Shown: positions 26,502 through 45,255 of the stretch, piece after piece
Position numbering within the stretch: position 1 is the first letter of the stretch
Layout of the letters: each line of letters starts with the position of its first letter
NCBI GenBank assembly: GCA_018817025.1
Contig: JAHIUU010000003.1
Span: 16,854-80,853, forward strand
Length of the DNA: 64,000 bases
DNA from: Candidatus Babelota bacterium
GTDB taxonomy: Bacteria > Babelota > Babeliae > Babelales > JAHIUU01
Reading direction: 5' to 3'
Notes under the pieces: generated by a model
Databases searched by the model: none
What the model was told of the DNA's origin: nothing
What the model saw: only the letters and a program-made list of their open reading frames with translations
Made by a program: the position numbers and the translations under genes

Positions 26502-27179
26502 CTACACAAAGTCTAGGCGCTTTTTGAGACGCGCAATTCCAAGCCAACCAAACATTACAGTAAAAGATGTCAAAGCAAGAACGCATATCCAGTATGGCAG
26601 ATAGCCTGTTTGCCCTAGTACAGCAGCCCTAATTCCCTCCATGGCATATATAAGGGGGTTGAGAAGAGAACAATACGAAATGGTTGGAGAGAGCTTATTG
26701 AGCATTTGCCACGAATAGTTTGTGCCTCCAAAAAACCAGAGCGGGAATAAGAAACGCATATTTACTTTTGCCATATGATGAAGATCTTTGATGCAGCTTG
26801 TTATAAAGAGAGAAAACGCTCCGGTGAAGATGTTTATCAACACATAGAAGAGTGCGAACTTGAGCATTGAAAAGTTCGACAAATTCATTCTGTTCCATAA
26901 GAAAAGTTTTCCAAGTGGGAGTATGATTAGCGTTGGGATACCGGCTTTAAGAGCGTAACTAATCACTTGCTTAATTAGCACAAGCACGTTTGGCATGGGC
27001 AGTGTTAAGAAGTAATTGATTGTTTTTTCCCCTTCTATATCGGAGACGAAGGTAGTTGTGTTTGCCCAAACGTCCCAGAACGAGCAGCTTACAATTGCTC
27101 CTATAGCGATGAATACACTAAAATGGTCAGGCATTCCGATCATTGGAAAAACATAGCCGAATGTTGCAATAATACACAA
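26502..27179 (-). CDS. ABC-2 type transporter permease (true N-terminus probably extends to about 27287)
   Basis: A multi-TM ABC-2 pattern. The same frame stays open upstream to 27326 and encodes a typical ABC-2 N-terminus, 'SYLKIFWELIKTDLYIYKQAILDAFVDATIWF', with no ATG/GTG/TTG. Confidence 0.7.
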   Translation of the reverse strand: MCIIATFGYVFPMIGMPDHFSVFIAIGAIVSCSFWDVWANTTTFVSDIEGEKTINYFLTLPMPNVLVLIKQVISYALKAGIPTLIILPLGKLFLWNRMNLSNFSMLKFALFYVLINIFTGAFSLFITSCIKDLHHMAKVNMRFLFPLWFFGGTNYSWQMLNKLSPTISYCSLLNPLIYAMEGIRAAVLGQTGYLPYWICVLALTSFTVMFGWLGIARLKKRLDFV

Positions 27180-27283
27180 AAACCAGATCGTTGCGTCTAC
27201 AAATGCGTCAAGAATTGCTTGCTTATAGATATAAAGATCTGTTTTTATCAGTTCCCAAAAGATTTTTAGATAAGAATGCTTCG

Positions 27284-27916
27284 TTATAGAGTTTTCGAAA
27301 TTTCTTCTCCTTTTGTTTGTCTGATTTCATCGATAGAGAGCCCATGTAATTCGTGAGGAAAAACGAGCCAGTGGTTGGTCTTGCGAACATAAAAATCAGG
27401 AATTATTATTGCAGAGTTTGGTTTGTAGTAGGTGCTGGCGATTTTGATCTGTCTTGGAGTATTATCCCCACATAGAGTCTGTATTTCTTTGAGCAAAGCC
27501 TGTATTGAGGTTCCTGTGTCAACGACGTCGTCGACTATCAATAGGGTATCGTCAGGCGTTAGTGTTTTGACGACGTCGTCGAGATTGAATACCTTTGCGG
27601 TCGGTTTTAGCTGGTCATGGTTATACGCGCTTACTCTAACAGCGAGATGATTTTCGATTGGCATGTTTTTATATTCAAAATATTCTGTTATTGCGATGCC
27701 CACCTGAGAGCCTCCTCGCCATAGTGCGATCAAAAATGTTGGCTTATATCCAGACTCAAAAATTGACTGGGCTAGTTTAAAAGAGTCATCTAGGAACTGT
27801 TGCGCACTTATATATTCTTTAGGGACAGAATTTTTTTGGGGAGTTTTGTTGATCACGAAGGTTACGAACGTTCCTACGATAAGAATTATGAAAAGTAACG
27901 ATTTTGTAGTTTTCAT
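27284..27916 (-). CDS. Type I purine phosphoribosyltransferase (Gpt/Hpt-like) with an N-terminal membrane anchor
   Basis: An SD sequence (GAGGA) lies 6 nt before the ATG at 27916. TM 'SLLFIILIVGTFVTFVI', 'FLIALWRGGSQVG', PRPP loop 'TLLIVDDVVDTGTSI', and 'NHWLVFPHE'. Confidence 0.75.
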   Translation of the reverse strand: MKTTKSLLFIILIVGTFVTFVINKTPQKNSVPKEYISAQQFLDDSFKLAQSIFESGYKPTFLIALWRGGSQVGIAITEYFEYKNMPIENHLAVRVSAYNHDQLKPTAKVFNLDDVVKTLTPDDTLLIVDDVVDTGTSIQALLKEIQTLCGDNTPRQIKIASTYYKPNSAIIIPDFYVRKTNHWLVFPHELHGLSIDEIRQTKGEEISKTL

Positions 27917-27941
27917 AGAAAATCCTCTAGTTGAGTATGAT

Positions 27942-28691
27942 TTATTGTGATTCTTCCTGCATAAGCTGTAAGAAAACATCTTCCAGTCGACTTTTTTGAT
28001 ACATGGACTTAAGCTTTGTTGGTGTATCAATCAACCGTATAACTCCTTTATCAAGTATGCAAATTCGGTCGGAGAGCATCTCAGCTTCTTCAATGTAGTG
28101 CGTGGTCAAAATAACGGTAACCCCGTCCTGTTTGAGTTGCTTGATACTGTCCCAAAGGTAACGCCTAATATGCGGGTCCAATCCAACGGTTGGCTCGTCA
28201 AGGATGACCAGCTTTGGTTTGTGGATCAGTGCTCGGACCAACGAAACTCTTTGTTTGTAGCCGCCTGAAAGTATCTTAGGTTTTGAGTCGAGATATTTTG
28301 CAAGATTGTACGTTTCGACGAGTTGCCTGACTCGCTGCTCGATAGTTTTTTCCGGCAAACTAAAATACCGCCCCGCAAATACAAGATTCTGCCTGACGGT
28401 AAGATCGTTAATAAGATTCGGTTCTTGCGGACAGAGGCCTATTTGCCGGCGATAAGCGTTAATATCATCATAGATCGACTTGTCGTTAAACAACACCTCG
28501 CCTTCGGTTTGGGGGTGTAGGGTTGCCAAGATTGACGATAACGTGGTTTTTCCCGCCCCGTTAACCCCTAATAACCCAAAAATTTCTCCTGCATAGAGTT
28601 CGAGTGAGATCCCGTCGAGAGCTTTGATTGGTGTTTTTTCATCAGGATAATATTTTTTAAGATTTTTGATTTTTATAATCGGCTTAGGCAT
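27942..28691 (-). CDS. ABC transporter ATP-binding protein (ABC-2/DrrA-type)
   Basis: Walker A 'GVNGAGKTT', signature 'LSGGYKQRVSL', and Walker B 'LVILDEPTVGLD'. Confidence 0.9.
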   Translation of the reverse strand: MPKPIIKIKNLKKYYPDEKTPIKALDGISLELYAGEIFGLLGVNGAGKTTLSSILATLHPQTEGEVLFNDKSIYDDINAYRRQIGLCPQEPNLINDLTVRQNLVFAGRYFSLPEKTIEQRVRQLVETYNLAKYLDSKPKILSGGYKQRVSLVRALIHKPKLVILDEPTVGLDPHIRRYLWDSIKQLKQDGVTVILTTHYIEEAEMLSDRICILDKGVIRLIDTPTKLKSMYQKSRLEDVFLQLMQEESQ

Positions 28692-28780
28692 GGCTTTTTA
28701 TCTGCTACCCCTAGGTTAAAAACGCTCTTTTTAAGTTAATTATAGTAGCAGATTTTTGTGAGATGTGGGATTTTTTTGAA

Positions 28781-28809
28781 GAGGGGTTCACCTTGGCGGC
28801 GAACCCCTC
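28781..28809 (-). terminator. GC-rich hairpin downstream of the 161-aa gene
   Basis: GAGGGGTTC pairs with GAACCCCTC across an 11-nt loop. The T-run flanks the + strand side, so the U-tract on the minus transcript is poor. Confidence 0.35.
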
Positions 28810-28839: not shown

Positions 28840-29325
28840 TTAGTTTTTCTTAGGACCTTTACCCCAAGGCCACCAGCCTGTTTTTTGGATCCCCCCTTTT
28901 CTGGCGGTTCTATAAATATCACGCAAAGTTTTTTTGTGTGTTTTGTATGTTTCGGACTGGCCTTGCATTTCTTTCAAGATTAATTCTATTTGTTTGACGG
29001 CGTTGTCCCATGTTGCCTTTTGCTCATAGGTCAAAGGTAGTATTTCTTTGTCGAGTTCTTCTGATGTCTTGAATTGAAGCATTCTTGGAAATCTTTCTTT
29101 CCCCTTTGTTGTTTCTTGGAAGAATTTTCGGTTTTCCATCCAGTTGTGCTTACCGACTTTGCCCTCCTTCTGTTGCTCAGCACCGCCTTTGCCAGTCTTC
29201 TTTTGCACAGTACTTTCTATCAGTTCTTGTTTGCTAATTAGACTCTTTTTTTTTGCGCTTGCTTGTCCTGTAAACATGACCACGACAGCCAAAAGTAGAG
29301 CACTCCATTGCATCTGCTTCGTCAT
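28840..29325 (-). CDS. Hypothetical secreted protein (161 aa), paralogue of the upstream gene
   Basis: It has a signal peptide. 'FKTSEELDKEILPLTYEQKATWDNAVKQIELILKEM' aligns with the neighbouring ORF. Confidence 0.6.
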   Translation of the reverse strand: MTKQMQWSALLLAVVVMFTGQASAKKKSLISKQELIESTVQKKTGKGGAEQQKEGKVGKHNWMENRKFFQETTKGKERFPRMLQFKTSEELDKEILPLTYEQKATWDNAVKQIELILKEMQGQSETYKTHKKTLRDIYRTARKGGIQKTGWWPWGKGPKKN

Positions 29326-29885
29326 AGCTTCCCCTTCGAAATAGAGTTAAACAGTTCAAATAATTCACGTTCTAATTTGTTATATCTTTCTTTTAGTGGT
29401 TTAAGTTCTATGAGCATCTTTTTTATTGTGATTTCTAGTGTTGCGCTCTTAAGATTTAGGTGTAGTTGCTTAGAAGTTAGCCTGCCGAATTCTATTGTGT
29501 CTGTTGGATTTAGTCGGGAAATATTTTCTCGTATTTTTCTCATATCTACTTTAATAGATTGTTTTTGATCGAATGGTTTTTTGAATTTTGCTCTGATAGC
29601 GTCGATTTCTCTTAACGTTTTCTCGACATTCTGCACGATTTGATCCCACTCGACCAGCTTGTTAGTAAGTGAAAAATCGTCTCCAGCATTTATTTCTTCA
29701 GCCGTTTTGAAATAGCACAGCTGCCTGAGTTGAGGGATATTCGGGGCGTATTGTTGTTTTGATACCGCACGAACAATTTCGTCTCGGGGTATTTCGCCAA
29801 GTAAGAGGGAGATGGAAAGAGAAGCGCCCAAGACAGAGCTTTTAATTAATTTTTTCACGAGCCCCCTTTTAGCTAAAAAATACAA
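29322..29885 (-). CDS. Hypothetical secreted protein (187 aa), paralogue of the downstream gene
   Basis: Leader 'SSVLGASLSISLLLG'. 'FKTAEEINAGDDFSLTNKLVEWDQIVQNVEKTLREI' aligns with the 161-aa ORF. The two genes overlap by 4 nt. Confidence 0.6.
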   Translation of the reverse strand: MYFLAKRGLVKKLIKSSVLGASLSISLLLGEIPRDEIVRAVSKQQYAPNIPQLRQLCYFKTAEEINAGDDFSLTNKLVEWDQIVQNVEKTLREIDAIRAKFKKPFDQKQSIKVDMRKIRENISRLNPTDTIEFGRLTSKQLHLNLKSATLEITIKKMLIELKPLKERYNKLERELFELFNSISKGKL

Positions 29886-29944
29886 CTAGAAAGTTATGTT
29901 GTTATTATAGTACTATAGAAGGGTTGCTGAGGGCAAGATTCTTG

Positions 29945-31216
29945 TTAAAAATTAAATGCTATTTGTCCGCCGACGGTATTGGCGAGGATTGATCGTTTTC
30001 CGGCGACAGGAAGTTTATAGAAGAACGAGAGGCCCAGCGGCGAGTATGAACCTCGAAAAACAAAGCTGTGGGTCGCCCATTCTTTTAGGCTTTGTGCCGA
30101 ATTGACGATTGAGTTGTCAAAATCATACGATTTAGGAGAAAGCCTGTTCTCGTCGTGTTTGACGAAGTGGTAGCTTATCGTGGTCGAAAGGCCGGAGAAA
30201 AATATTTTTTTGGCCTGTGTAAAAAGAGTAAACTGCCACATTGGTCCTTGGCTTTTACTTGCTTGTCCTTTGTGTAGAATCAAGAAGTCTGTTTGATTAA
30301 CGTCCGTTTTCATGCGATAGGTTCTGGTGGTATCGAAAGTTCCTAAAAGGCTCAGATCAATGCCGGCTTTCAGATGATATACAAAATCGAGATCGAGTCC
30401 CAGAGATAACGGTATACCCCATGCGCCGTCAAGGCCGAGGGGAAGAGAGAGCGCCTGATCCTCATCCCTTTGTTTGCCCGTTGGGATTGAAACGCCAACA
30501 TTTGCATTGATCCTAACTTTTTTAAGATAGGTTTTGAGTTGCTTAAAATCTTTTTTCCAGCCGAGCATGATGGCAATATCTCCAATTCCACTTGCTTTCC
30601 AGCCGTGCCTATTGATGTTTAGACAGGCGTGTGTCCGAGCAAACTGTTCGATATTACCTGACACCAGTTCTTGAAACTCTCTGTCAGCAGAAAGGACGCT
30701 TTGTGTTTGGTCACACCAGCTTACGTTATACAGCTCCATTTCTTTGAAGGGGACGAATAGGCCTAGTTCGAAGGTTCCATCAAGTGTTATTGGTAGCTTA
30801 TATCGGGTAAAAAATGTGTAGCTTCGTTCTTTATAGTTACCATCAAGCTTAAATCGTCCACGACAGCTATTATCGGTTGCTGTTGCGGCAGAAACGCCTA
30901 GCGATTTAGCAAGCTTGTCGAGGTAGCTGTCCTTCGGAACACCGAGAAGCATCCCAAGACTTGACTCTGTTGTATTATACAACTGAAATATGCCGACTTT
31001 ATTCGAGTCCCAATCTCGGCCCTTATCTGTTTTGCCATCTTCAACAAACATCCCAACCCGAAAATTGTTTTTTTCCCACTCATATTGTCGAAAATCGACA
31101 TCATACGGGCGATGGAAGTTAGTTGGAGTGTAAGCACTTAGGCTAATCTCAATTGAAAAAAAAGTGGTAAGAAGTAAGACTGTTTTGAAAAAAAGATTCT
31201 TGCTGGTTCGTTTCAC
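29945..31216 (-). CDS. Outer-membrane beta-barrel protein (family unknown)
   Basis: It has a signal peptide and alternating-hydrophobic strands throughout. The C-terminal OMP signature ends in '...GGQIAFNF'. Confidence 0.65.
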   Translation of the reverse strand: MKRTSKNLFFKTVLLLTTFFSIEISLSAYTPTNFHRPYDVDFRQYEWEKNNFRVGMFVEDGKTDKGRDWDSNKVGIFQLYNTTESSLGMLLGVPKDSYLDKLAKSLGVSAATATDNSCRGRFKLDGNYKERSYTFFTRYKLPITLDGTFELGLFVPFKEMELYNVSWCDQTQSVLSADREFQELVSGNIEQFARTHACLNINRHGWKASGIGDIAIMLGWKKDFKQLKTYLKKVRINANVGVSIPTGKQRDEDQALSLPLGLDGAWGIPLSLGLDLDFVYHLKAGIDLSLLGTFDTTRTYRMKTDVNQTDFLILHKGQASKSQGPMWQFTLFTQAKKIFFSGLSTTISYHFVKHDENRLSPKSYDFDNSIVNSAQSLKEWATHSFVFRGSYSPLGLSFFYKLPVAGKRSILANTVGGQIAFNF

Positions 31217-31244
31217 GATTGTCCTTTGCTAATTTGTCGTTCAG

Positions 31245-34016
31245 TTATTCGTTGACCCGTATTCCCCAATCCCCTGGAATAACCCAGGCGCCCGAAGCTG
31301 TGTTTTGTACGGGGATTCCGGCATTGTGTGCGCTTGAATCAAGTCCTAGCGGTAACCTGCGATCGCTGGCGCGTACGCTAAACTGTGTTGAGGTGATGTT
31401 GACTTTTCGTCCGTATCCTGTTCGGTCAAAATGTTTTGGAAGGGTGTGGTAGCCAAAGGTTCCATCTGGAACGAACGTCGTTCTCAGTTCTCCAAATGCA
31501 TAGTAGTGGTCACGACTTCTTTCGGTGATCGCCTGTATTGTGTTGTCATCAACCGTGCCGGTTGGATTATTTACGGTAAATCGCAGAATGGTTGCAAGAT
31601 CGGTTGTCATGTTTGCCGAAACGGCGTACAGGTTGCCTCCACCATCAAACGATCCTTTGCTCAACGATTGCATTGAAAGATTGGTAACTTGACCCAAAGT
31701 ACGATCAGATTTCGTTTTCACCTCAGTCCATGAGCTGCCTGATTTAATAGTCTGACCGTTCGATGTTCGATACAGTCCCGATGTTGTTGCAAGCATTCCT
31801 ACGTTGCCAGAAACGAGAAAATCCAAGAGCGAATCGTTGGAGGATACAGGTTGAGCTATAACGGTAGCAGTTAGGGCGTCAGGACTGGTGTCTTTAAACT
31901 TATCAGCGTCCATCGCAATTCTATAGAGCGCACGTGGCGTGAGTACGTAGAGATACTCGTTATCGCAGACCAGTTTATGGACTCGGGAAAAATCGCCAAT
32001 TTCTTTAAATGTAAATCCTGGTGTTGAGATATTGTTTGTGAGGTCGTCGAGCTGAGTCCAGCCTGTTCCATCAGACCCCTTGCGTAGGACCGCGGCGCCG
32101 CCATACCCACCGACAAAAAGCCAGCCTTCGTCTGTATCAGAAGAGAGCGATGTTGCTGCACAGCATATTGGTCCGATGTTTTGTAGGTCGTTGTTGTTAA
32201 AAATTTTGACGTTGTCCACTAGATTTGTTGAGAAGTCTGTTCCTGACGTTGGAACGAATACCCCGTCAACTTTTCCTGATCGAATAAGGGCGACTTTTTG
32301 ATAACCGGTTGCCACCATCATTGAGAATTCGTCTTCGAGAAAGCTTGCTGTTTTTTCATCGAAGTTAAAGAGTTGGTGTATGCCGCCAATTTCCTTAGGG
32401 AGCTCTAGGACAAGCTTCTTGTGTAAGTTGCCCAGTAATTCTGTGTCATTTTGGCTCCAGAGAGTTGTTTTTACGGTGTCTCCGGGGTTGTTTGTTTGTG
32501 TTAGATACCAAAACTGTCCTGTTTCTATGTCGATATGTGCATTTAAAACAGGATCCGTTGAACCCATAACGCGTTGCCATGGTGTCCAGCCTCGTATTAG
32601 GCCGTCTTCATCGAATATCGCTGTGCTTTTAAATATTCCCTTGGCGTTTTCGGCGCTGCCGGCACAGCAGGCGTAGACGGCATCACCCAGTGTGAACATG
32701 TTTTCGACGGTGTCGGGGACCGTCCCTTGGCCCGTCTTGGCTTCAGCGTCGGTTTTTGTTCGAAGCTCACCAGGTATAGTAGGCGCGTCTTCCTGTGTAA
32801 CAGAATCTTTTTTTGCGAGGGTTCCTATGAGACTCTTATCATCAGAAGTTGTTATAATTGGCAGCGCAAACAGTTCGGTTTTTATAATAGAACCTAAATT
32901 ATTATAAATGTTTCCGTTTGCGATTAGATATGCTTTTCCTGTACTGGTGTACATGGTTTTGATGTTGTGAATGGCAACATGCTCGTCTGGAGCAGTGATG
33001 AGCGTATCTTTGTGAAATGCGACAATCTTATCCGTGGCCGTATCTGTTCCGATAACGCTTGCTGGAACGACCGGCTCAAGAATAAGCTTATCTCCATCCA
33101 TTCTTCCGACAAGAACACCAGAAATAAACGTTGAATCATTAGAGTTAATTTTTCCCTGTAGTCCAATGAAAAGTCTCTTGAGAATCGAATCCCAGAACAT
33201 CACTGCGCCATCGAGCAGGTCGATGTTTGTTGCATCAGATCCAGCTACTGTTTTTACGGTAACGGATTTATTGCCTTCTTGGCCTGTTGTTGCATCGATC
33301 GGGGTAAGATCGACGCCGGTCGACTTAACAACGGCGATACCCGAGTTTGTTCCACCGAACGTTGCTTCTTCTGTATGGTTGACCGCCGCAAAGATATGAC
33401 TTGTAGACGAAGCAAGACCCGAAATTCCTCCGGTTTGGTTGCCGTTTGAATCGTTGATTTTTTTTGTGTTTGTTAAAACAAAATCGCCTTTAGTAGCGCT
33501 GAGAACCATAACAATATTTTGGTTGGTTCCTGTTGTATTAGAATCGACGTAATTTGGGTTTCTTGTTGCGGGAACGGCGACTGGATAGGGGCCGGAGAGC
33601 GAGAGGTGAGCGATGTCTGCGTTATAGAGCGGGTTTTCGGTTTTGCCTGACTCTTTAGCACCGTTGCTTTGACTTTGATTGACAAATGCTTTTTGGGGCG
33701 CAAGTGCTAAGAAGTCTAACGTAACCAGGTCGCTGGTTACATTGATAAATGCTCGCGAGAGTGCGTATGTTTTTTGATTTGTATTGGAAGCCCCCAGGTA
33801 AAAATTATTTGCCGACAGAAAGGTGCTGGGGCCAAAGGTGAGTGGGGCGGTTGTTATGACGTCTACGCTTCTGGTTGCAATCTCCACTTCTTCTTTTTCT
33901 ACCGTGGCCATCGTAACCGATCTTGGGCCGCTTGAAAGTGTTGGAAGAACGGTTTGATAGACTCCCATATTTAGGGCCATCGTCACGATTATTGTCAATC
34001 TCGTGTGTCTACTCAT
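31245..34016 (-). CDS. Large secreted/surface protein (923 aa), possible beta-propeller
   Basis: Hydrophobic leader and a T/S/N/G-rich composition. Asp-box-like motifs 'LRKGSDGTGWTQL' and 'GLYRTSNGQTIKSGSSWTEV'. No family was recognised with confidence. Confidence 0.6.
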   Translation of the reverse strand: MSRHTRLTIIVTMALNMGVYQTVLPTLSSGPRSVTMATVEKEEVEIATRSVDVITTAPLTFGPSTFLSANNFYLGASNTNQKTYALSRAFINVTSDLVTLDFLALAPQKAFVNQSQSNGAKESGKTENPLYNADIAHLSLSGPYPVAVPATRNPNYVDSNTTGTNQNIVMVLSATKGDFVLTNTKKINDSNGNQTGGISGLASSTSHIFAAVNHTEEATFGGTNSGIAVVKSTGVDLTPIDATTGQEGNKSVTVKTVAGSDATNIDLLDGAVMFWDSILKRLFIGLQGKINSNDSTFISGVLVGRMDGDKLILEPVVPASVIGTDTATDKIVAFHKDTLITAPDEHVAIHNIKTMYTSTGKAYLIANGNIYNNLGSIIKTELFALPIITTSDDKSLIGTLAKKDSVTQEDAPTIPGELRTKTDAEAKTGQGTVPDTVENMFTLGDAVYACCAGSAENAKGIFKSTAIFDEDGLIRGWTPWQRVMGSTDPVLNAHIDIETGQFWYLTQTNNPGDTVKTTLWSQNDTELLGNLHKKLVLELPKEIGGIHQLFNFDEKTASFLEDEFSMMVATGYQKVALIRSGKVDGVFVPTSGTDFSTNLVDNVKIFNNNDLQNIGPICCAATSLSSDTDEGWLFVGGYGGAAVLRKGSDGTGWTQLDDLTNNISTPGFTFKEIGDFSRVHKLVCDNEYLYVLTPRALYRIAMDADKFKDTSPDALTATVIAQPVSSNDSLLDFLVSGNVGMLATTSGLYRTSNGQTIKSGSSWTEVKTKSDRTLGQVTNLSMQSLSKGSFDGGGNLYAVSANMTTDLATILRFTVNNPTGTVDDNTIQAITERSRDHYYAFGELRTTFVPDGTFGYHTLPKHFDRTGYGRKVNITSTQFSVRASDRRLPLGLDSSAHNAGIPVQNTASGAWVIPGDWGIRVNE

Positions 34017-39056: not shown

Positions 39057-40112
39057 ATGGAGAGCAAGATGGCAAAAAATACAAGTAAGCAGAGCGTTGT
39101 AATGATTGGCGGTGCAACACGAGATATATATTTACAGTATCATGGAGCCGATTGCATGAGCATAACGGAGCGTGATTGCGAGCGACGGTATATGTTGTTC
39201 GAGTCGGGGGCCAAGGTTGAGGTTGAAGATGTTCTGTATTACACCGGCGGAGGGGCTACCAATTCGGCTGTTTCATTTAAGCGCTTAGGTTTTGACGTTA
39301 CCTGTTTCTGTATGATCGGTGATGATGAAGCTGGTCACGCTGTCTTACAAGATCTAACAAGCGAGGGTATTGATACGAGTAGTATTACCGTCTCCCAGAC
39401 TCATGCCTCAGGAACGTCGTTTGTTGTTAATTCACTACGCCGAGATCGGACGATTTTTGCCTATCGAGGGGCAAACGGGTTTCTGGCAGAAGAAAACATC
39501 GATTTAGATTTGATTGAGAACGCAAGTCAGCTGTACATAACTTCTCTCAGTCACGAGTCGTCGCAAATGCTCAGTACGATTGGGGCGTATGCGAAGAAGC
39601 ACAACATTCCTGTTGCGGTTAATCCAGGAATTAGCCAGCTATCGACAGGGGCTCAAGAGCTTAAGAAGTCGCTTAAATACATCGACATTCTTATTTTGAA
39701 TTGTTCAGAGGCCAAAACGTTTATGGGCGCGTTAGCCGAGCAGTCACGGGAGTCGTTATATTTTAGTGTTCCAAATTTCTTCAAAGAGGTTATGGGAATA
39801 GGGCCTCGGATTGCTGTAGTGACCGATGGAGCCCAAGGTGTCTATGTTGCGACGAATAATACCGTCTATTTTCACCCTAGCATGTCGGTTGAGGTTGTCG
39901 ATACGCTTGGCGCAGGCGACTCATTTGGCTCCTGTTTTGTTGGTTGCCTACGTCGGGGCATGGGCATTGAGGATGCTTTACGGTGTGGGATTGTTAACAG
40001 TGCTTCGGTGATTGGTCAGTTTGGTGCCAAACCGGGCCTTTTGTCGTACGACCAGCTTCAGAGGCGAGTTAAAAATATAAAGCCGGGCCTATTACAAAAA
40101 AACTTGCTGTGA
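39057..40112 (+). CDS. PfkB-family carbohydrate/nucleoside kinase (ribokinase-like)
   Basis: 'GGGATNSAVSFKRLG' and the C-terminal PfkB signature 'DTLGAGDSFGSCFVGCL'. Confidence 0.8.
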   Translation: MESKMAKNTSKQSVVMIGGATRDIYLQYHGADCMSITERDCERRYMLFESGAKVEVEDVLYYTGGGATNSAVSFKRLGFDVTCFCMIGDDEAGHAVLQDLTSEGIDTSSITVSQTHASGTSFVVNSLRRDRTIFAYRGANGFLAEENIDLDLIENASQLYITSLSHESSQMLSTIGAYAKKHNIPVAVNPGISQLSTGAQELKKSLKYIDILILNCSEAKTFMGALAEQSRESLYFSVPNFFKEVMGIGPRIAVVTDGAQGVYVATNNTVYFHPSMSVEVVDTLGAGDSFGSCFVGCLRRGMGIEDALRCGIVNSASVIGQFGAKPGLLSYDQLQRRVKNIKPGLLQKNLL

Positions 40113-43035: not shown

Positions 43036-43446
43036 ATGGAAGAAAGAACATATGGGATGATCAAGCCCGGCGCGATCAAAGCTGGTTGTACAGGCGAGAT
43101 TATTAGTCGAATTGAGAAGGATGGCTTTTCGATTGTTGCCATGAAAAAGTTGCATATGACTAAAGAGTTGGCAGAGCTTTTTTATGAGGTCCATAGACAG
43201 AGACCATTTTTTGGCGAGCTTGTTGAATCGATTTCAGCAGGGCCGGTTGTTGCGTTGGTGCTTGAAAAAGATGGCGCGATTGTGGCTTGGCGAGAGTTGA
43301 TGGGAGCGACCAACCCAGCACAAGCAGCTGAGGGTACGTTGCGTAAGCTTTATGGTACGAGCATTGGTGAAAATGCGGTGCATGGTTCAGATGCGCCTGA
43401 CACCGCTCGGACAGAGATAGAGCTTATTTTTCCTGAATTGGGGTAG
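43036..43446 (+). CDS. ndk: Nucleoside diphosphate kinase
   Basis: 'ERTYGMIKPGA', 'RPFFGELV' and 'NAVHGSDAPDTA' (active-site His). Confidence 0.95.
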   Translation: MEERTYGMIKPGAIKAGCTGEIISRIEKDGFSIVAMKKLHMTKELAELFYEVHRQRPFFGELVESISAGPVVALVLEKDGAIVAWRELMGATNPAQAAEGTLRKLYGTSIGENAVHGSDAPDTARTEIELIFPELG

Positions 43447-43527: not shown

Positions 43528-45255
43528 ATGAAAAAGATAATTTTATTTCTATGTAGTTTGTTACTGAGTACGCAGTCTGTTGTTGGTATGGAGCCAAGCC
43601 CTAAGAGGCGTAAAGTAGACACCCGTGTGGTTGATGGTGATGAGCCCGGTAAGCTTCATGAGCTTGACGATGTCATTCCAGGTGTTTTTAACGATGTTAC
43701 CAAAGACGTAATTTTTTCTTATCTGACTCTTTTTGATTTACTTGGGGCTTTGTGCTTGGTAGGCAAAGACATGAGTTTTTTGGTGGATTTTCATATCAAA
43801 GAAAGCTCACATCCGAATTACGATCGACCCTTTCTAATAAAAATAGATAGTTTTATTTATATGCCTTTGCTTCGATTTATGGAAAAAAACAGGCAGGGTC
43901 TTGTTTTATTCGTTACGCCGAGCTGTTCTATTGAAAGCTGGAATTGTTTTGAAGATTTTCTTTCAGTTAACCGATGGGAAGAGAAGTGGCTTCTTGTTGT
44001 TGGCCTAAGGATTGAAGGGGCTGGCGTTGATTGCGATTTGTTGAGTAAGTTTTCGAATCTTAAGGAGCTGCTTATTGCAAACAACCCAAATCTTAATCCA
44101 GAATTGTTAAGAGATATTCTATCAAACTTGCCCAAGCTTCAGAAGTTCAGTTGCCATTCTATTTTAGCAGAAGAGAACGAGCAGAACGAGATGATTGATA
44201 CTATTGTTGAATATGGTGCGAATCTGAAAGATCTAAAACTTGTTGGTTTTGATTGTTTACAAGGAAATTGTTTTCAGAGGCTTGTCAAGGGGTTGGGAAC
44301 GTTGCAGGCATTGCGATTATACCATTGTTGTGGTGATGATGGATCGTTTGAGAATGACTTAAAAAATAGCGCCGAGCATCTTGGAAATATAAAAGAATTA
44401 GTGATCGAGCATCAAGATTTTCCTGCGGGTGCCTTTATCGATATTGCTGGCTCGTTAAAAAATTTAGAAGTATTAGTCGTTATCAATCCAAATCTTTCGA
44501 ACAGAAGGATTACAGGAAACTTTCTGAGAAACGTTAAGAAGCTAGTAAAATTGCGAGTATTGCGTCTTGAGGGTGCGTATGTTGACGGCAAAGACTTTCA
44601 TGCGCTTGGTGATATTGCGGACTGTTCAAAACTGCGAGAATTGGCCTTTGGTCTTTGGGGCATGTGTCTTCAAGATAATAATAGAAAGATGGTTGTGAAA
44701 GCGCTAAAGCAATTTGTGCAAGCTCTTCCCGAGTTGAAAGTATTCGCAATGGCGTTGAGTGGTATCAGTGCTGAAGATCCAATAGATACCCCTTGTGGCT
44801 GTCTTGACGGTGATTGTAATTGTCCGAACTTTTGTTGGAATATGCCGAATGAAGTTGTTGAGCAGATTGTGAATATGAGGGGCTTGGAAAGTGTTTCTTT
44901 CGGTACTACTACTCGTGTGTCTAAAGAGACAATAGAAAAACTAAAAAATCTTAAAAATCTTAAAACTCTTTGGATAAGATTTCCTGCAGAGAGGTTGGTT
45001 GCTAATTTGCTGAAATCACTACCTGAAAACCTTGGTGTCTTAACGGTTGGTCTTCACAATTCAAGATTGTGTTTCTGTGGTTTTAAGAAAAAGTTTAGCA
45101 AGTATTTTCTAACGGGTTTAAAGCAATGTAGGCTTTTTGGTCTTCGTCAAAAATCTTGCTGTTGGCCAAGGCCGGACATTTTCGATCCCCCAACGCCTGG
45201 CAACAATACAGATCCTGTTGTTAATTACCCAGGTCAGGAAGATTCCGATTTTTAA
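43528..45255 (+). CDS. Secreted eukaryote-like F-box / leucine-rich-repeat (FBXL/RNI-type) protein
   Basis: Signal peptide 'MKKIILFLCSLLLSTQSVVG', 'SPKRRKVD', and an F-box-like 'VTKDVIFSYLTLFDLLGALCLVGKDMSFLV'. Repeated ~25-aa LRRs follow ('LKELLIANNPNLNPELLRDILSNLPKLQKF', 'LKDLKLVGFDCLQGNCFQRLVKGLGTLQAL'...). Confidence 0.75.
   Translation: MKKIILFLCSLLLSTQSVVGMEPSPKRRKVDTRVVDGDEPGKLHELDDVIPGVFNDVTKDVIFSYLTLFDLLGALCLVGKDMSFLVDFHIKESSHPNYDRPFLIKIDSFIYMPLLRFMEKNRQGLVLFVTPSCSIESWNCFEDFLSVNRWEEKWLLVVGLRIEGAGVDCDLLSKFSNLKELLIANNPNLNPELLRDILSNLPKLQKFSCHSILAEENEQNEMIDTIVEYGANLKDLKLVGFDCLQGNCFQRLVKGLGTLQALRLYHCCGDDGSFENDLKNSAEHLGNIKELVIEHQDFPAGAFIDIAGSLKNLEVLVVINPNLSNRRITGNFLRNVKKLVKLRVLRLEGAYVDGKDFHALGDIADCSKLRELAFGLWGMCLQDNNRKMVVKALKQFVQALPELKVFAMALSGISAEDPIDTPCGCLDGDCNCPNFCWNMPNEVVEQIVNMRGLESVSFGTTTRVSKETIEKLKNLKNLKTLWIRFPAERLVANLLKSLPENLGVLTVGLHNSRLCFCGFKKKFSKYFLTGLKQCRLFGLRQKSCCWPRPDIFDPPTPGNNTDPVVNYPGQEDSDF

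Follow-up and report, generated by a model that had tools for sequence, protein, structure and literature searches.

How a gene for a purine phosphoribosyltransferase (PRTase) comes to lie between the ATPase and permease genes of an ATP-binding cassette (ABC) transporter, and where the hydrophobic N-terminus of its product directs the enzyme, are the questions raised by a three-gene cluster in a metagenome-assembled genome (MAG) of Candidatus Dependentiae (TM6). The cluster locates within the 64,000-nucleotide stretch analysed here, which we refer to as the window (GenBank assembly GCA_018817025.1, contig JAHIUU010000003.1, positions 16,854 to 80,853). Salvage enzymes that depend on phosphoribosyl pyrophosphate (PRPP) are textbook cytoplasmic proteins. 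An original prediction, made from the sequence alone, proposed that the three gene products couple purine import to phosphoribosylation at the membrane. Our analysis favours another answer, which we hold with moderate confidence: the enzyme is a Sec-targeted, exported purine PRTase whose gene was inserted once into the operon of an exporter-type ABC-2 transporter, and no specific partnership with the pump is needed.

The three genes are densely packed on one strand in the order originally described (Table 1) and constitute one operon, in which 25 nt (27941-27917) separate the ATPase gene from the PRTase gene. Reading of the sequence confirmed the Shine-Dalgarno motif and its spacing before the PRTase start. 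A scan for promoters and terminators made no minus-strand call within the three-gene cluster, and its overall counts were not above those of shuffled controls. The ATPase scored 230 bits against TIGR01188 (the drrA subfamily), which is under the equivalog-level cutoff.

With 42.4 bits against PF00156 (cutoff 26.3), the PRTase belongs to the type I phosphoribosyltransferases. It contains the PRPP-binding motif LLIVDDVVDTGTS, in which D129, D130, D133 and G135 are invariant in 31 sequences. Over 31 family members, the invariant or near-invariant positions comprise R67-G68-G69 (the pyrophosphate, or PPi, loop), D129-D130 and D133-x-G135 (the PRPP motif), K165-P166 and W183; the roles of RGG, K165-P166 and W183 are presumably those of their counterparts in E. 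coli XGPRT. A sequence search of the PDB returned archaeal and bacterial purine PRTases as best matches, namely the Pyrococcus horikoshii enzyme (1vdm, 7.6e-11) and Sulfolobus GpT-2 and GpT-1 (4trb), with 4z1o at 3.8e-10. The AlphaFold2 model of the PRTase (pLDDT 88.8) consists of a low-confidence helix (residues 5-22), a disordered linker (23-32) and a confident globular domain (33-210). With this model, the top Foldseek matches were Sulfolobus HGXPRT, the P. horikoshii purine PRTase, H. pylori XGHPRT and E. coli XGPRT, and the E-values against 4z1o, 1vdm, 7kl6 and 4jit were 9e-14 to 2e-9.

The window enzyme has the type I PRTase fold in common with the Gpt/HGXPRT group (E. coli XGPRT; H. pylori XGHPRT, 7kl6; Sulfolobus solfataricus HGXPRT, 4z1o/4zfn; P. 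horikoshii, 1vdm), as well as the RGG of the PPi loop, the motif VDDVVDTG, a Lys-Pro at the 6-oxo recognition position and a C-terminal Trp in W-x-x-x-P-x-E. Judged from the model, it would work like a 6-oxopurine PRTase, sharing the RGG loop, the Lys at the O6 position and the stacking Trp. However, identity to the solved relatives is merely 20-28%, and these are all soluble cytoplasmic enzymes, whereas the clade of the window PRTase has a Sec targeting sequence. The PDB entry for the related Sulfolobus GpT-1 (4trb) names it an adenine PRTase, and the base specificity of the window enzyme is a prediction only. The label 'Gpt/Hpt-like' is right as a description of how the enzyme works, but the curated cutoffs are far from reached (31.8 against 150 bits for TIGR01203, hypoxanthine PRTase; 31.2 against 138 for NF006613, Gpt). 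The PRTase is not a member of the canonical Hpt or Gpt equivalog but of a separate, only related family of about 190 aa that occurs widely among gammaproteobacteria and SAR324. Exported and cytosolic members of this family agree at all catalytic and PRPP-binding positions, which argues for unchanged chemistry.

Neither the PRTase nor the permease matched a PADLOC model, and we do not regard the enzyme as an anti-phage PRTase effector of the retron or PRTase-CE type; its score against PF24390 was 16.2 bits, below the cutoff of 27. A recent horizontal transfer of the PRTase gene was also rejected, given a G+C content of 0.40 against 0.42 for the window and nearest relatives that are other Dependentiae-like genes.

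The N-terminal hydrophobic segment, MKTTK-SLLFIILIVGTFVTFVI-NKTPQK in the window, is translated, as the original prediction supposed, and conserved. In two further contigs with the same gene order, L002 and L003, it reads MKTTK-VVCIMLLIAATGITLVI-NKTPQ and MRKTK-IFFMIVIIVATGIVIIT-RKTSR, collinear with the window sequence and still hydrophobic. In both, the PRTase start is a GTG that overlaps the ATPase stop as GTGA, with the N-terminal segment included in the reading frame. An apolar run of at least 15 residues within an open 32-codon stretch occurs in 0.35% of random sequences of matching composition, and the segment is therefore not a product of chance. The extension is shared by about 25 orthologues on Dependentiae-like contigs. 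As a control, about 70 non-Dependentiae homologues begin 2-5 residues before the conserved K33, without the extension. At L021 (444-1109), the deposited call of P0014 begins at an internal TTG, and the upstream ATG restores the signal-peptide-like MHRKNNIVVCFFSIFLLC. Truncated gene calls of this kind may hide export signals in automated Dependentiae annotations. Based on the chance estimate, the control with cytosolic homologues and P0014, which the caller had truncated and not extended, we rejected the view that the hydrophobic N-termini are over-extended gene calls.

We also notice that codon 31 of the PRTase gene is GTG in L002 (6064-6066), ATG in L003 (4226-4228) and GTC in the window. Initiation at this codon in L002 and L003 would give the soluble MxKxYI N-terminus of cytosolic homologues, and dual exported and cytosolic isoforms are conceivable. 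Another subgroup, of the cytosolic type (P0030, P0031, P0035, P0076 and others; 205 aa; on contigs of 1-4.7 Mb), has a short uncharged N-terminal extension, MAASAVSVFMAINIANNNDVEK, with no Sec-like n-region.

By surveying the N-termini of 27 sequences of the signal-bearing clade, which are 40-75% identical to the window PRTase, we found in every one (27/27) an n-region with positive charge, followed by an h-region that is 11-22 residues long. At least 12 members have a classical -3/-1 site shortly past the h-region, namely VSA/I, VEA/E, AHA/E, SEA/K, GYA/Q, ISA/Q, IYA/K, LHA/D, LSA/E, MNA/E, MRA/E and TFA/Q (the slash marks the cleavage point). The window PRTase has the n- and h-regions of a Sec-type signal (MKTTK, charge +2, followed by 17 apolar residues) and no signal peptidase I site with small residues at -3/-1. 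Its lack of such a site, which the original prediction had already noted, leads us to read the segment as an uncleaved anchor.

Hydrophobicity was measured as the sum over 19 residues on the Hessa scale; on this measure the clade separates into a cleavable type (+3 to +8) and an anchor type (-0.7 to +1.7), the latter comprising the window PRTase, P0002, P0003, P0264, P0233, P0005, P0016, P0009 and P0021. The window PRTase (-0.1) is near the anchor of the MlaD-domain protein encoded in the same window (-0.8), and the window's own cleavable signal peptides have sums of +3 to +5, such as MTKQMQWSALLLAVVVMFTGQASA/KKK at +5.2. Members of the MlaD family are oriented N-in with a periplasmic domain. 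The MlaD protein of the window is far longer than typical MlaD proteins.

A rough neighbour-joining tree shows the signal-bearing clade as monophyletic. Orthologues with cleavable signal peptides must work outside the cytoplasm, and it is therefore most economical to suppose that the catalytic domain of the window enzyme is likewise exported, and tethered. Export of this domain is what the sequences most likely indicate, and in the window subclade an uncleaved signal anchor probably holds the PRTase at the periplasmic face. The original prediction had itself named a catalytic domain in the periplasm, away from any source of PRPP, as fatal to its proposal; this exported location now appears to be the most likely state.

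The order ATPase-PRTase-permease is not unique to the window, as it recurs in L002 and L003, yet it is limited to these three contigs of one clade. In L002, the PRTase is 66-68% identical to that of the window (by BLAST) and the ATPase 83%, and the contig stops before the permease; in L003, the PRTase is 58% and the permease 77% identical. Orthologous ATPase and permease genes are directly adjacent (0-45 nt), with no PRTase gene, in eight loci: L009, L010, L012, L013, L014, L015/L016, L017 and L018, of which L014 is from a TM6 genome and L013 from a Chlamydiae MAG. Adjacency, which the original prediction took to be normal for ABC-2 pairs, is thus found in 8/8 other orthologous loci examined. 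The ATPase orthologues in L002, L003 and L009-L018 are 53-83% identical. In L015/L016, L017 and L018, the permeases are 71%, 66% and 62% identical, and the neighbourhood is kept, type II secretion genes included. Meanwhile, signal-bearing PRTase orthologues occur alone among unrelated genes in six contexts (L004/5, L006, L007/8, L019 on the downstream side, L020 and L021).

A metagenome scan with an alignment of signal-bearing PRTases revealed no further sandwich among 80 additional loci, which mostly belong to the cytosolic family; only three of the loci (L022, L024 and L026) are signal-bearing. A contig scan with a single permease query found nothing, and a narrower permease alignment gave only six loci. 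The three sandwich PRTases form one subclade in the neighbour-joining tree. Because the sandwich is found only in three related contigs whose PRTases fall in one clade, a single recent insertion is suggested. The simplest history that the sequences suggest is that a PRTase gene which already encoded the signal moved once, into the gap between two transporter genes that were ancestrally adjacent.

The permease scored 34.3 bits against PF01061 (cutoff 26.9) and stayed under every curated cutoff of the named NCBIfam subfamilies (38.8 against 225 bits). Its conserved N-terminus, SYLKIFWELIKTDL, starts right at the PRTase stop, which bears out the overlap originally described. The same N-terminus is found in the orthologous permeases of about 263 aa, which begin M-x-x-x-x-(H/K)-SYLK(I/L)FW(E/Q)L(I/L)KTDL and align from residue 3. 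The window frame is open up to 27326, with an upstream in-frame stop at 27329-27327, and contains no ATG, GTG or TTG between this stop and the TTG at 27179, a start that would cost 36 conserved residues. The sole plausible and position-equivalent start is ATA 27287-27285, which forms an ATAA overlap with the TAA stop (27286-27284) of the PRTase gene. The AAGGAG found 19 nt upstream is beyond the normal Shine-Dalgarno distance. As a canonical start is absent, gene callers shorten the permease to 210-225 aa, with the loss of most of the first helix. The independent assembly L001 has an identical sequence in the start region, and the L003 permease has an ordinary ATG 14 nt past the PRTase stop. 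A programmed -1 frameshift fusing the PRTase to the permease, which would account for the missing start codon, was rejected, since there is no slippery heptamer at ...TCG AAA ACT CTA TAA and the L003 permease starts at a normal ATG.

The sequence search of the PDB with the permease profile gave no match. The AlphaFold2 model of the permease (pLDDT 91.7) was matched by Foldseek to the type V folds ABCH-9C, NosY, ABCG5/8, Wzm, KpsM and TarG, with weak E-values (3e-4 to 1e-2) and TM-scores of 0.6-0.7. These structural matches are exporters or extruders only, with no importer among them, and the operon encodes no substrate-binding protein. From the PF00005 ATPase, the PF01061 permease and the modelled exporter fold, we assign the pair to the ABC-2 (type V) transporters. 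It shares these two domains and the six-helix permease fold with NosFY(D), Wzm-Wzt, KpsMT, TarGH and ABCG/ABCH, and, like them, has adjacent ATPase and permease genes in the orthologous loci. It differs from them in having no sequence-level match to any solved permease and no carbohydrate-binding or periplasmic partner domain, and in that the window pair is split by the PRTase gene and its permease lacks a canonical start.

We propose that a Dependentiae-specific clade of Gpt/HGXPRT type, its motifs intact, gained a Sec-type N-terminal targeting sequence, which in most members would be a cleavable signal peptide. In the window subclade, a longer h-region with no Ala-X-Ala (AXA) site may form an N-in/C-out signal anchor and tether the enzyme to the periplasmic face of the inner membrane; alternatively, the domain may be released by atypical cleavage. 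A single insertion, in an ancestor shared by the window, L002 and L003, would have placed the gene between adjacent exporter-type ATPase and permease genes, where it would use the transcription and translational coupling of the operon. Outside the cytoplasm, the enzyme may act on host PRPP and hypoxanthine, guanine or xanthine, which could diffuse into the periplasm or be reached after type II secretion of the enzyme into the host. The products, inosine, guanosine or xanthosine monophosphate (IMP, GMP or XMP), might then be imported by the parasite's nucleotide transporters. This scheme would involve no specific partnership with the ABC-2 pump, and the data do not require one. If PRPP-dependent enzymes are exported in an intracellular parasite, an extracytoplasmic source of PRPP can only be the host.

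Several points weigh against this proposal. The topology call rests on heuristics, the comparison with the MlaD anchor and the cleavable signal peptides of the window is only suggestive, and the charge balance of the window PRTase is ambiguous, as the residues ahead of the helix carry +2 and so do the 15 that follow. P0015 (L023) is genuinely without the N-terminal extension, and the taxonomy of most homologous contigs was deduced from context. The sandwich has outlived considerable divergence (58-67% identity between the PRTases, with tight coupling through GTGA and ATAA), and its persistence could reflect selection for co-expression and not neutrality. PRPP is labile and normally cytoplasmic, and the genome makes its own through a cytoplasmic Prs. 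The extracytoplasmic source of PRPP is purely inferred, and the uptake of nucleoside monophosphates (NMPs) by the NTT transporters of the lineage is a presumption.

A second enzyme family bears on the export of PRTases. At L006 (1877-3640), two paralogous uracil PRTase genes are found 1.4 kb away from a Gpt-like gene with a signal sequence; one uracil PRTase is ordinary (205 aa), and the other begins MKRQLFVISVLIGLSFQQAHG/K. A search with the latter returned at least 10 more Dependentiae-like uracil PRTases with signal peptides, mixed with signal-less ones (at least 11 in total; P0352-P0400); examples are MQKKVLLTLLATGALFGYAAA/E, MKTAKTLAAIFLCGQTALA/S, MSYKKSILIALSLLSLQNIFA/T and MKKKTFLLSTFCLITLFCNA/T. 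The exported uracil PRTase P0352 has a C-terminal tail rich in Thr, Ser and Val. The presence of export signals on two unrelated PRTase families suggests that nucleotide-salvage enzymes are exported in Dependentiae. In our literature searches, which covered Dependentiae and PRTases, group translocation and secreted PRTases, we met with no purine or uracil PRTase that is Sec-targeted, and the export of salvage enzymes by Dependentiae appears to be unreported. In Chromulinavorax, which replicates in the host cytoplasm, 44% of the coding sequences carry signal peptides (PMC6561590), and this high background tempers the surprise of exported PRTases, of which that paper makes no mention.

On this basis we put forward a broader idea, as a tentative one. 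Dependentiae might run part of their salvage outside the cytoplasm, where exported Gpt-like and uracil PRTases, in the periplasm or delivered to the host through the conserved type II secretion system, would make NMPs from host PRPP and bases for import. In the window subclade, the purine enzyme would have become tethered to the membrane and part of an ABC-2 exporter operon, with which it may form a functional module.

Other readings of the locus fare less well. An exported PRTase-fold protein might serve a purpose other than salvage, as an effector that acts on the host and depletes its PRPP or purines, or as a nucleotide-binding protein. A very large part of the Dependentiae proteome is secreted, many effectors included (PMC6561590). 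PRTase folds can also bind guanosine tetraphosphate (ppGpp), 5vog being among the structural matches, and the window PRTase falls far under the Hpt and Gpt equivalog cutoffs. We nevertheless consider a non-salvage role unlikely, given that every catalytic and PRPP position is retained by exported and cytosolic members alike.

The anchored, periplasm-facing enzyme might also be a true accessory of the ABC-2 exporter, with the pump delivering PRPP or a nucleotide precursor to it or driving it mechanically in the manner of NosFY and NosD. The best structural matches of the permease include NosDFY, a system with a periplasmic partner; the PRTase gene lies between those of the two subunits, with translational coupling, the clade that contains the sandwich is also where the N-terminus switches to the anchor type, and a cytoplasmic Prs is present. 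However, in close relatives the transporter is complete and adjacent without a PRTase gene, and N-termini of the anchor type are seen in PRTases that lie in no sandwich as well (P0005/L019, P0016 and P0009). With the weak Foldseek E-values of the permease and a purely hypothetical interaction, we regard this accessory role as decidedly improbable.

Closest to the original prediction is an enzyme held by its helix at the cytoplasmic face (N-out/C-in), so that bases entering through the ABC-2 transporter are phosphoribosylated with cytoplasmic PRPP. In the 1970s, purine group translocation by membrane-associated PRTases was reportedly suggested to take place in vesicles of E. coli and Salmonella, and the locus resembles that proposal in that a purine PRTase is membrane-associated and encoded beside transport genes. 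The tight, translationally coupled operon kept in three contigs, the anchor-like h-region of the subclade (17 residues, no AXA, Lys on both flanks) and the provision of PRPP by cytoplasmic Prs agree with such a model. It is opposed by orthologues of 45-60% identity whose short h-regions and canonical cleavage sites are incompatible with a cytoplasmic domain, by the permease fold and the lack of a substrate-binding protein, and by the N-terminal tail with two Lys, which disfavours N-out insertion under the positive-inside rule. Transporter and enzyme also occur without each other, the former in eight loci and the latter in six contexts. Unlike in group translocation, the enzyme most likely faces outward, its neighbour is of the exporter type, and their linkage would be a recent insertion in a small clade, seen in 3 linked contigs against 8 transporter loci without a PRTase. 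We therefore consider coupled purine import very doubtful. With an enzyme that probably points in the wrong direction and a pump of the exporter kind, the locus provides no test of the old idea of purine group translocation.

The last alternative, an ordinary soluble cytoplasmic enzyme started at the internal GTG (codon 21) with the hydrophobic segment untranslated, is hardly credible: it would leave a 12-residue lead, close in length to that of soluble homologues, and codon 31 of L002 and L003 would recreate their N-terminus, but the GTG is GTA in L002 and ATC in L003 and is therefore not a conserved start, the window has no start at codon 31, the GTG has merely AGGA 15 nt upstream whereas the ATG has GAGGA at 6 nt, and the charged-plus-hydrophobic module is kept in about 25 orthologues.

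Table 1. Features of the window discussed in the text, in window coordinates.
Feature	Coordinates	Strand	Remarks
ABC transporter ATP-binding subunit, 249 aa	28691-27942	minus	First gene of the operon; PF00005, E 1.9e-35; DrrA/NodI-like
Shine-Dalgarno GAGGA	27927-27923	minus	6 nt before the PRTase ATG at 27916; read from the sequence
Gpt/HGXPRT-like type I purine PRTase, 210 aa, with N-terminal targeting segment	27916-27284	minus	PF00156
PRTase codons 1-22, n-region MKTTK and 17-residue h-region	27916-27851	minus	Probable uncleaved Sec signal anchor; no AXA site
ABC-2 permease, 261 aa if ATA 27287 is the start	27287-26502	minus	PF01061
G+C-rich hairpin, 9-bp stem, GAGGGGTTC/GAACCCCTC	28781-28809	minus	Between the stop of the upstream secreted-protein gene (28840) and the ATPase gene
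Four Pfam-less genes (923, 423, 187 and 161 aa)	28840-34016	minus	Upstream of the ATPase gene; most with signal peptides
Type II secretion/pseudopilin cluster	19337-24022	minus	2.5 kb from the PRTase locus; position kept in syntenic relatives L017 and L018
GspF	22799-24022	minus	Within the type II secretion cluster
N-methyl pseudopilin-like open reading frames	20471-21755	minus	Within the type II secretion cluster
MlaD-domain protein (PF02470), 508 aa, N-terminal signal anchor	17801-19327	minus	In-genome anchor control
prs	8254-9195
PfkB kinase	39057-40112
ndk	43036-43446
Leucine-rich-repeat protein, 575 aa, signal peptide	43528-45255	plus	Directly after ndk

The hairpin upstream of the ATPase gene, which has an A-run at one flank and merely a short T stretch at the other, was not called by the terminator scan, for want of a T-tract. 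It may mark the boundary of the operon. A TATAAT-like box follows near 28745. Further upstream, the 423-aa protein of the Pfam-less block ends in ...QIAFNF, which resembles the end of an outer-membrane beta-barrel. The four-gene block accompanies the ABC-2 pair in relatives (L002 and L015), and this co-travel may hint at an envelope-related role of the pump. The genes prs, PfkB kinase and ndk are all present in the window, as the original prediction stated, and none of their products has a hydrophobic N-terminus. The leucine-rich-repeat protein after ndk looks like a typical candidate host-interaction effector.

Secreted Ndk is known from several pathogens. Extracellular NAMPT is likewise a precedent for a nucleotide-metabolism enzyme outside the cell (PMC4919578). 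The exported Dependentiae PRTases would resemble both in being normally cytoplasmic enzymes of nucleotide metabolism located outside the cell, but Ndk and NAMPT, unlike the signal-bearing PRTases, have no classical signal peptide or are of a different fold. The interest of the locus would increase upon demonstrated export and extracytoplasmic activity. If the proposal is true, the parasite builds nucleotides from host PRPP and bases before importing them, a metabolic piracy that, to our knowledge, has not been described for Chlamydiae, Rickettsiales or microsporidia. The salvage capacity of Dependentiae would then be read differently, as the presence of a salvage gene would not imply a cytoplasmic pathway.

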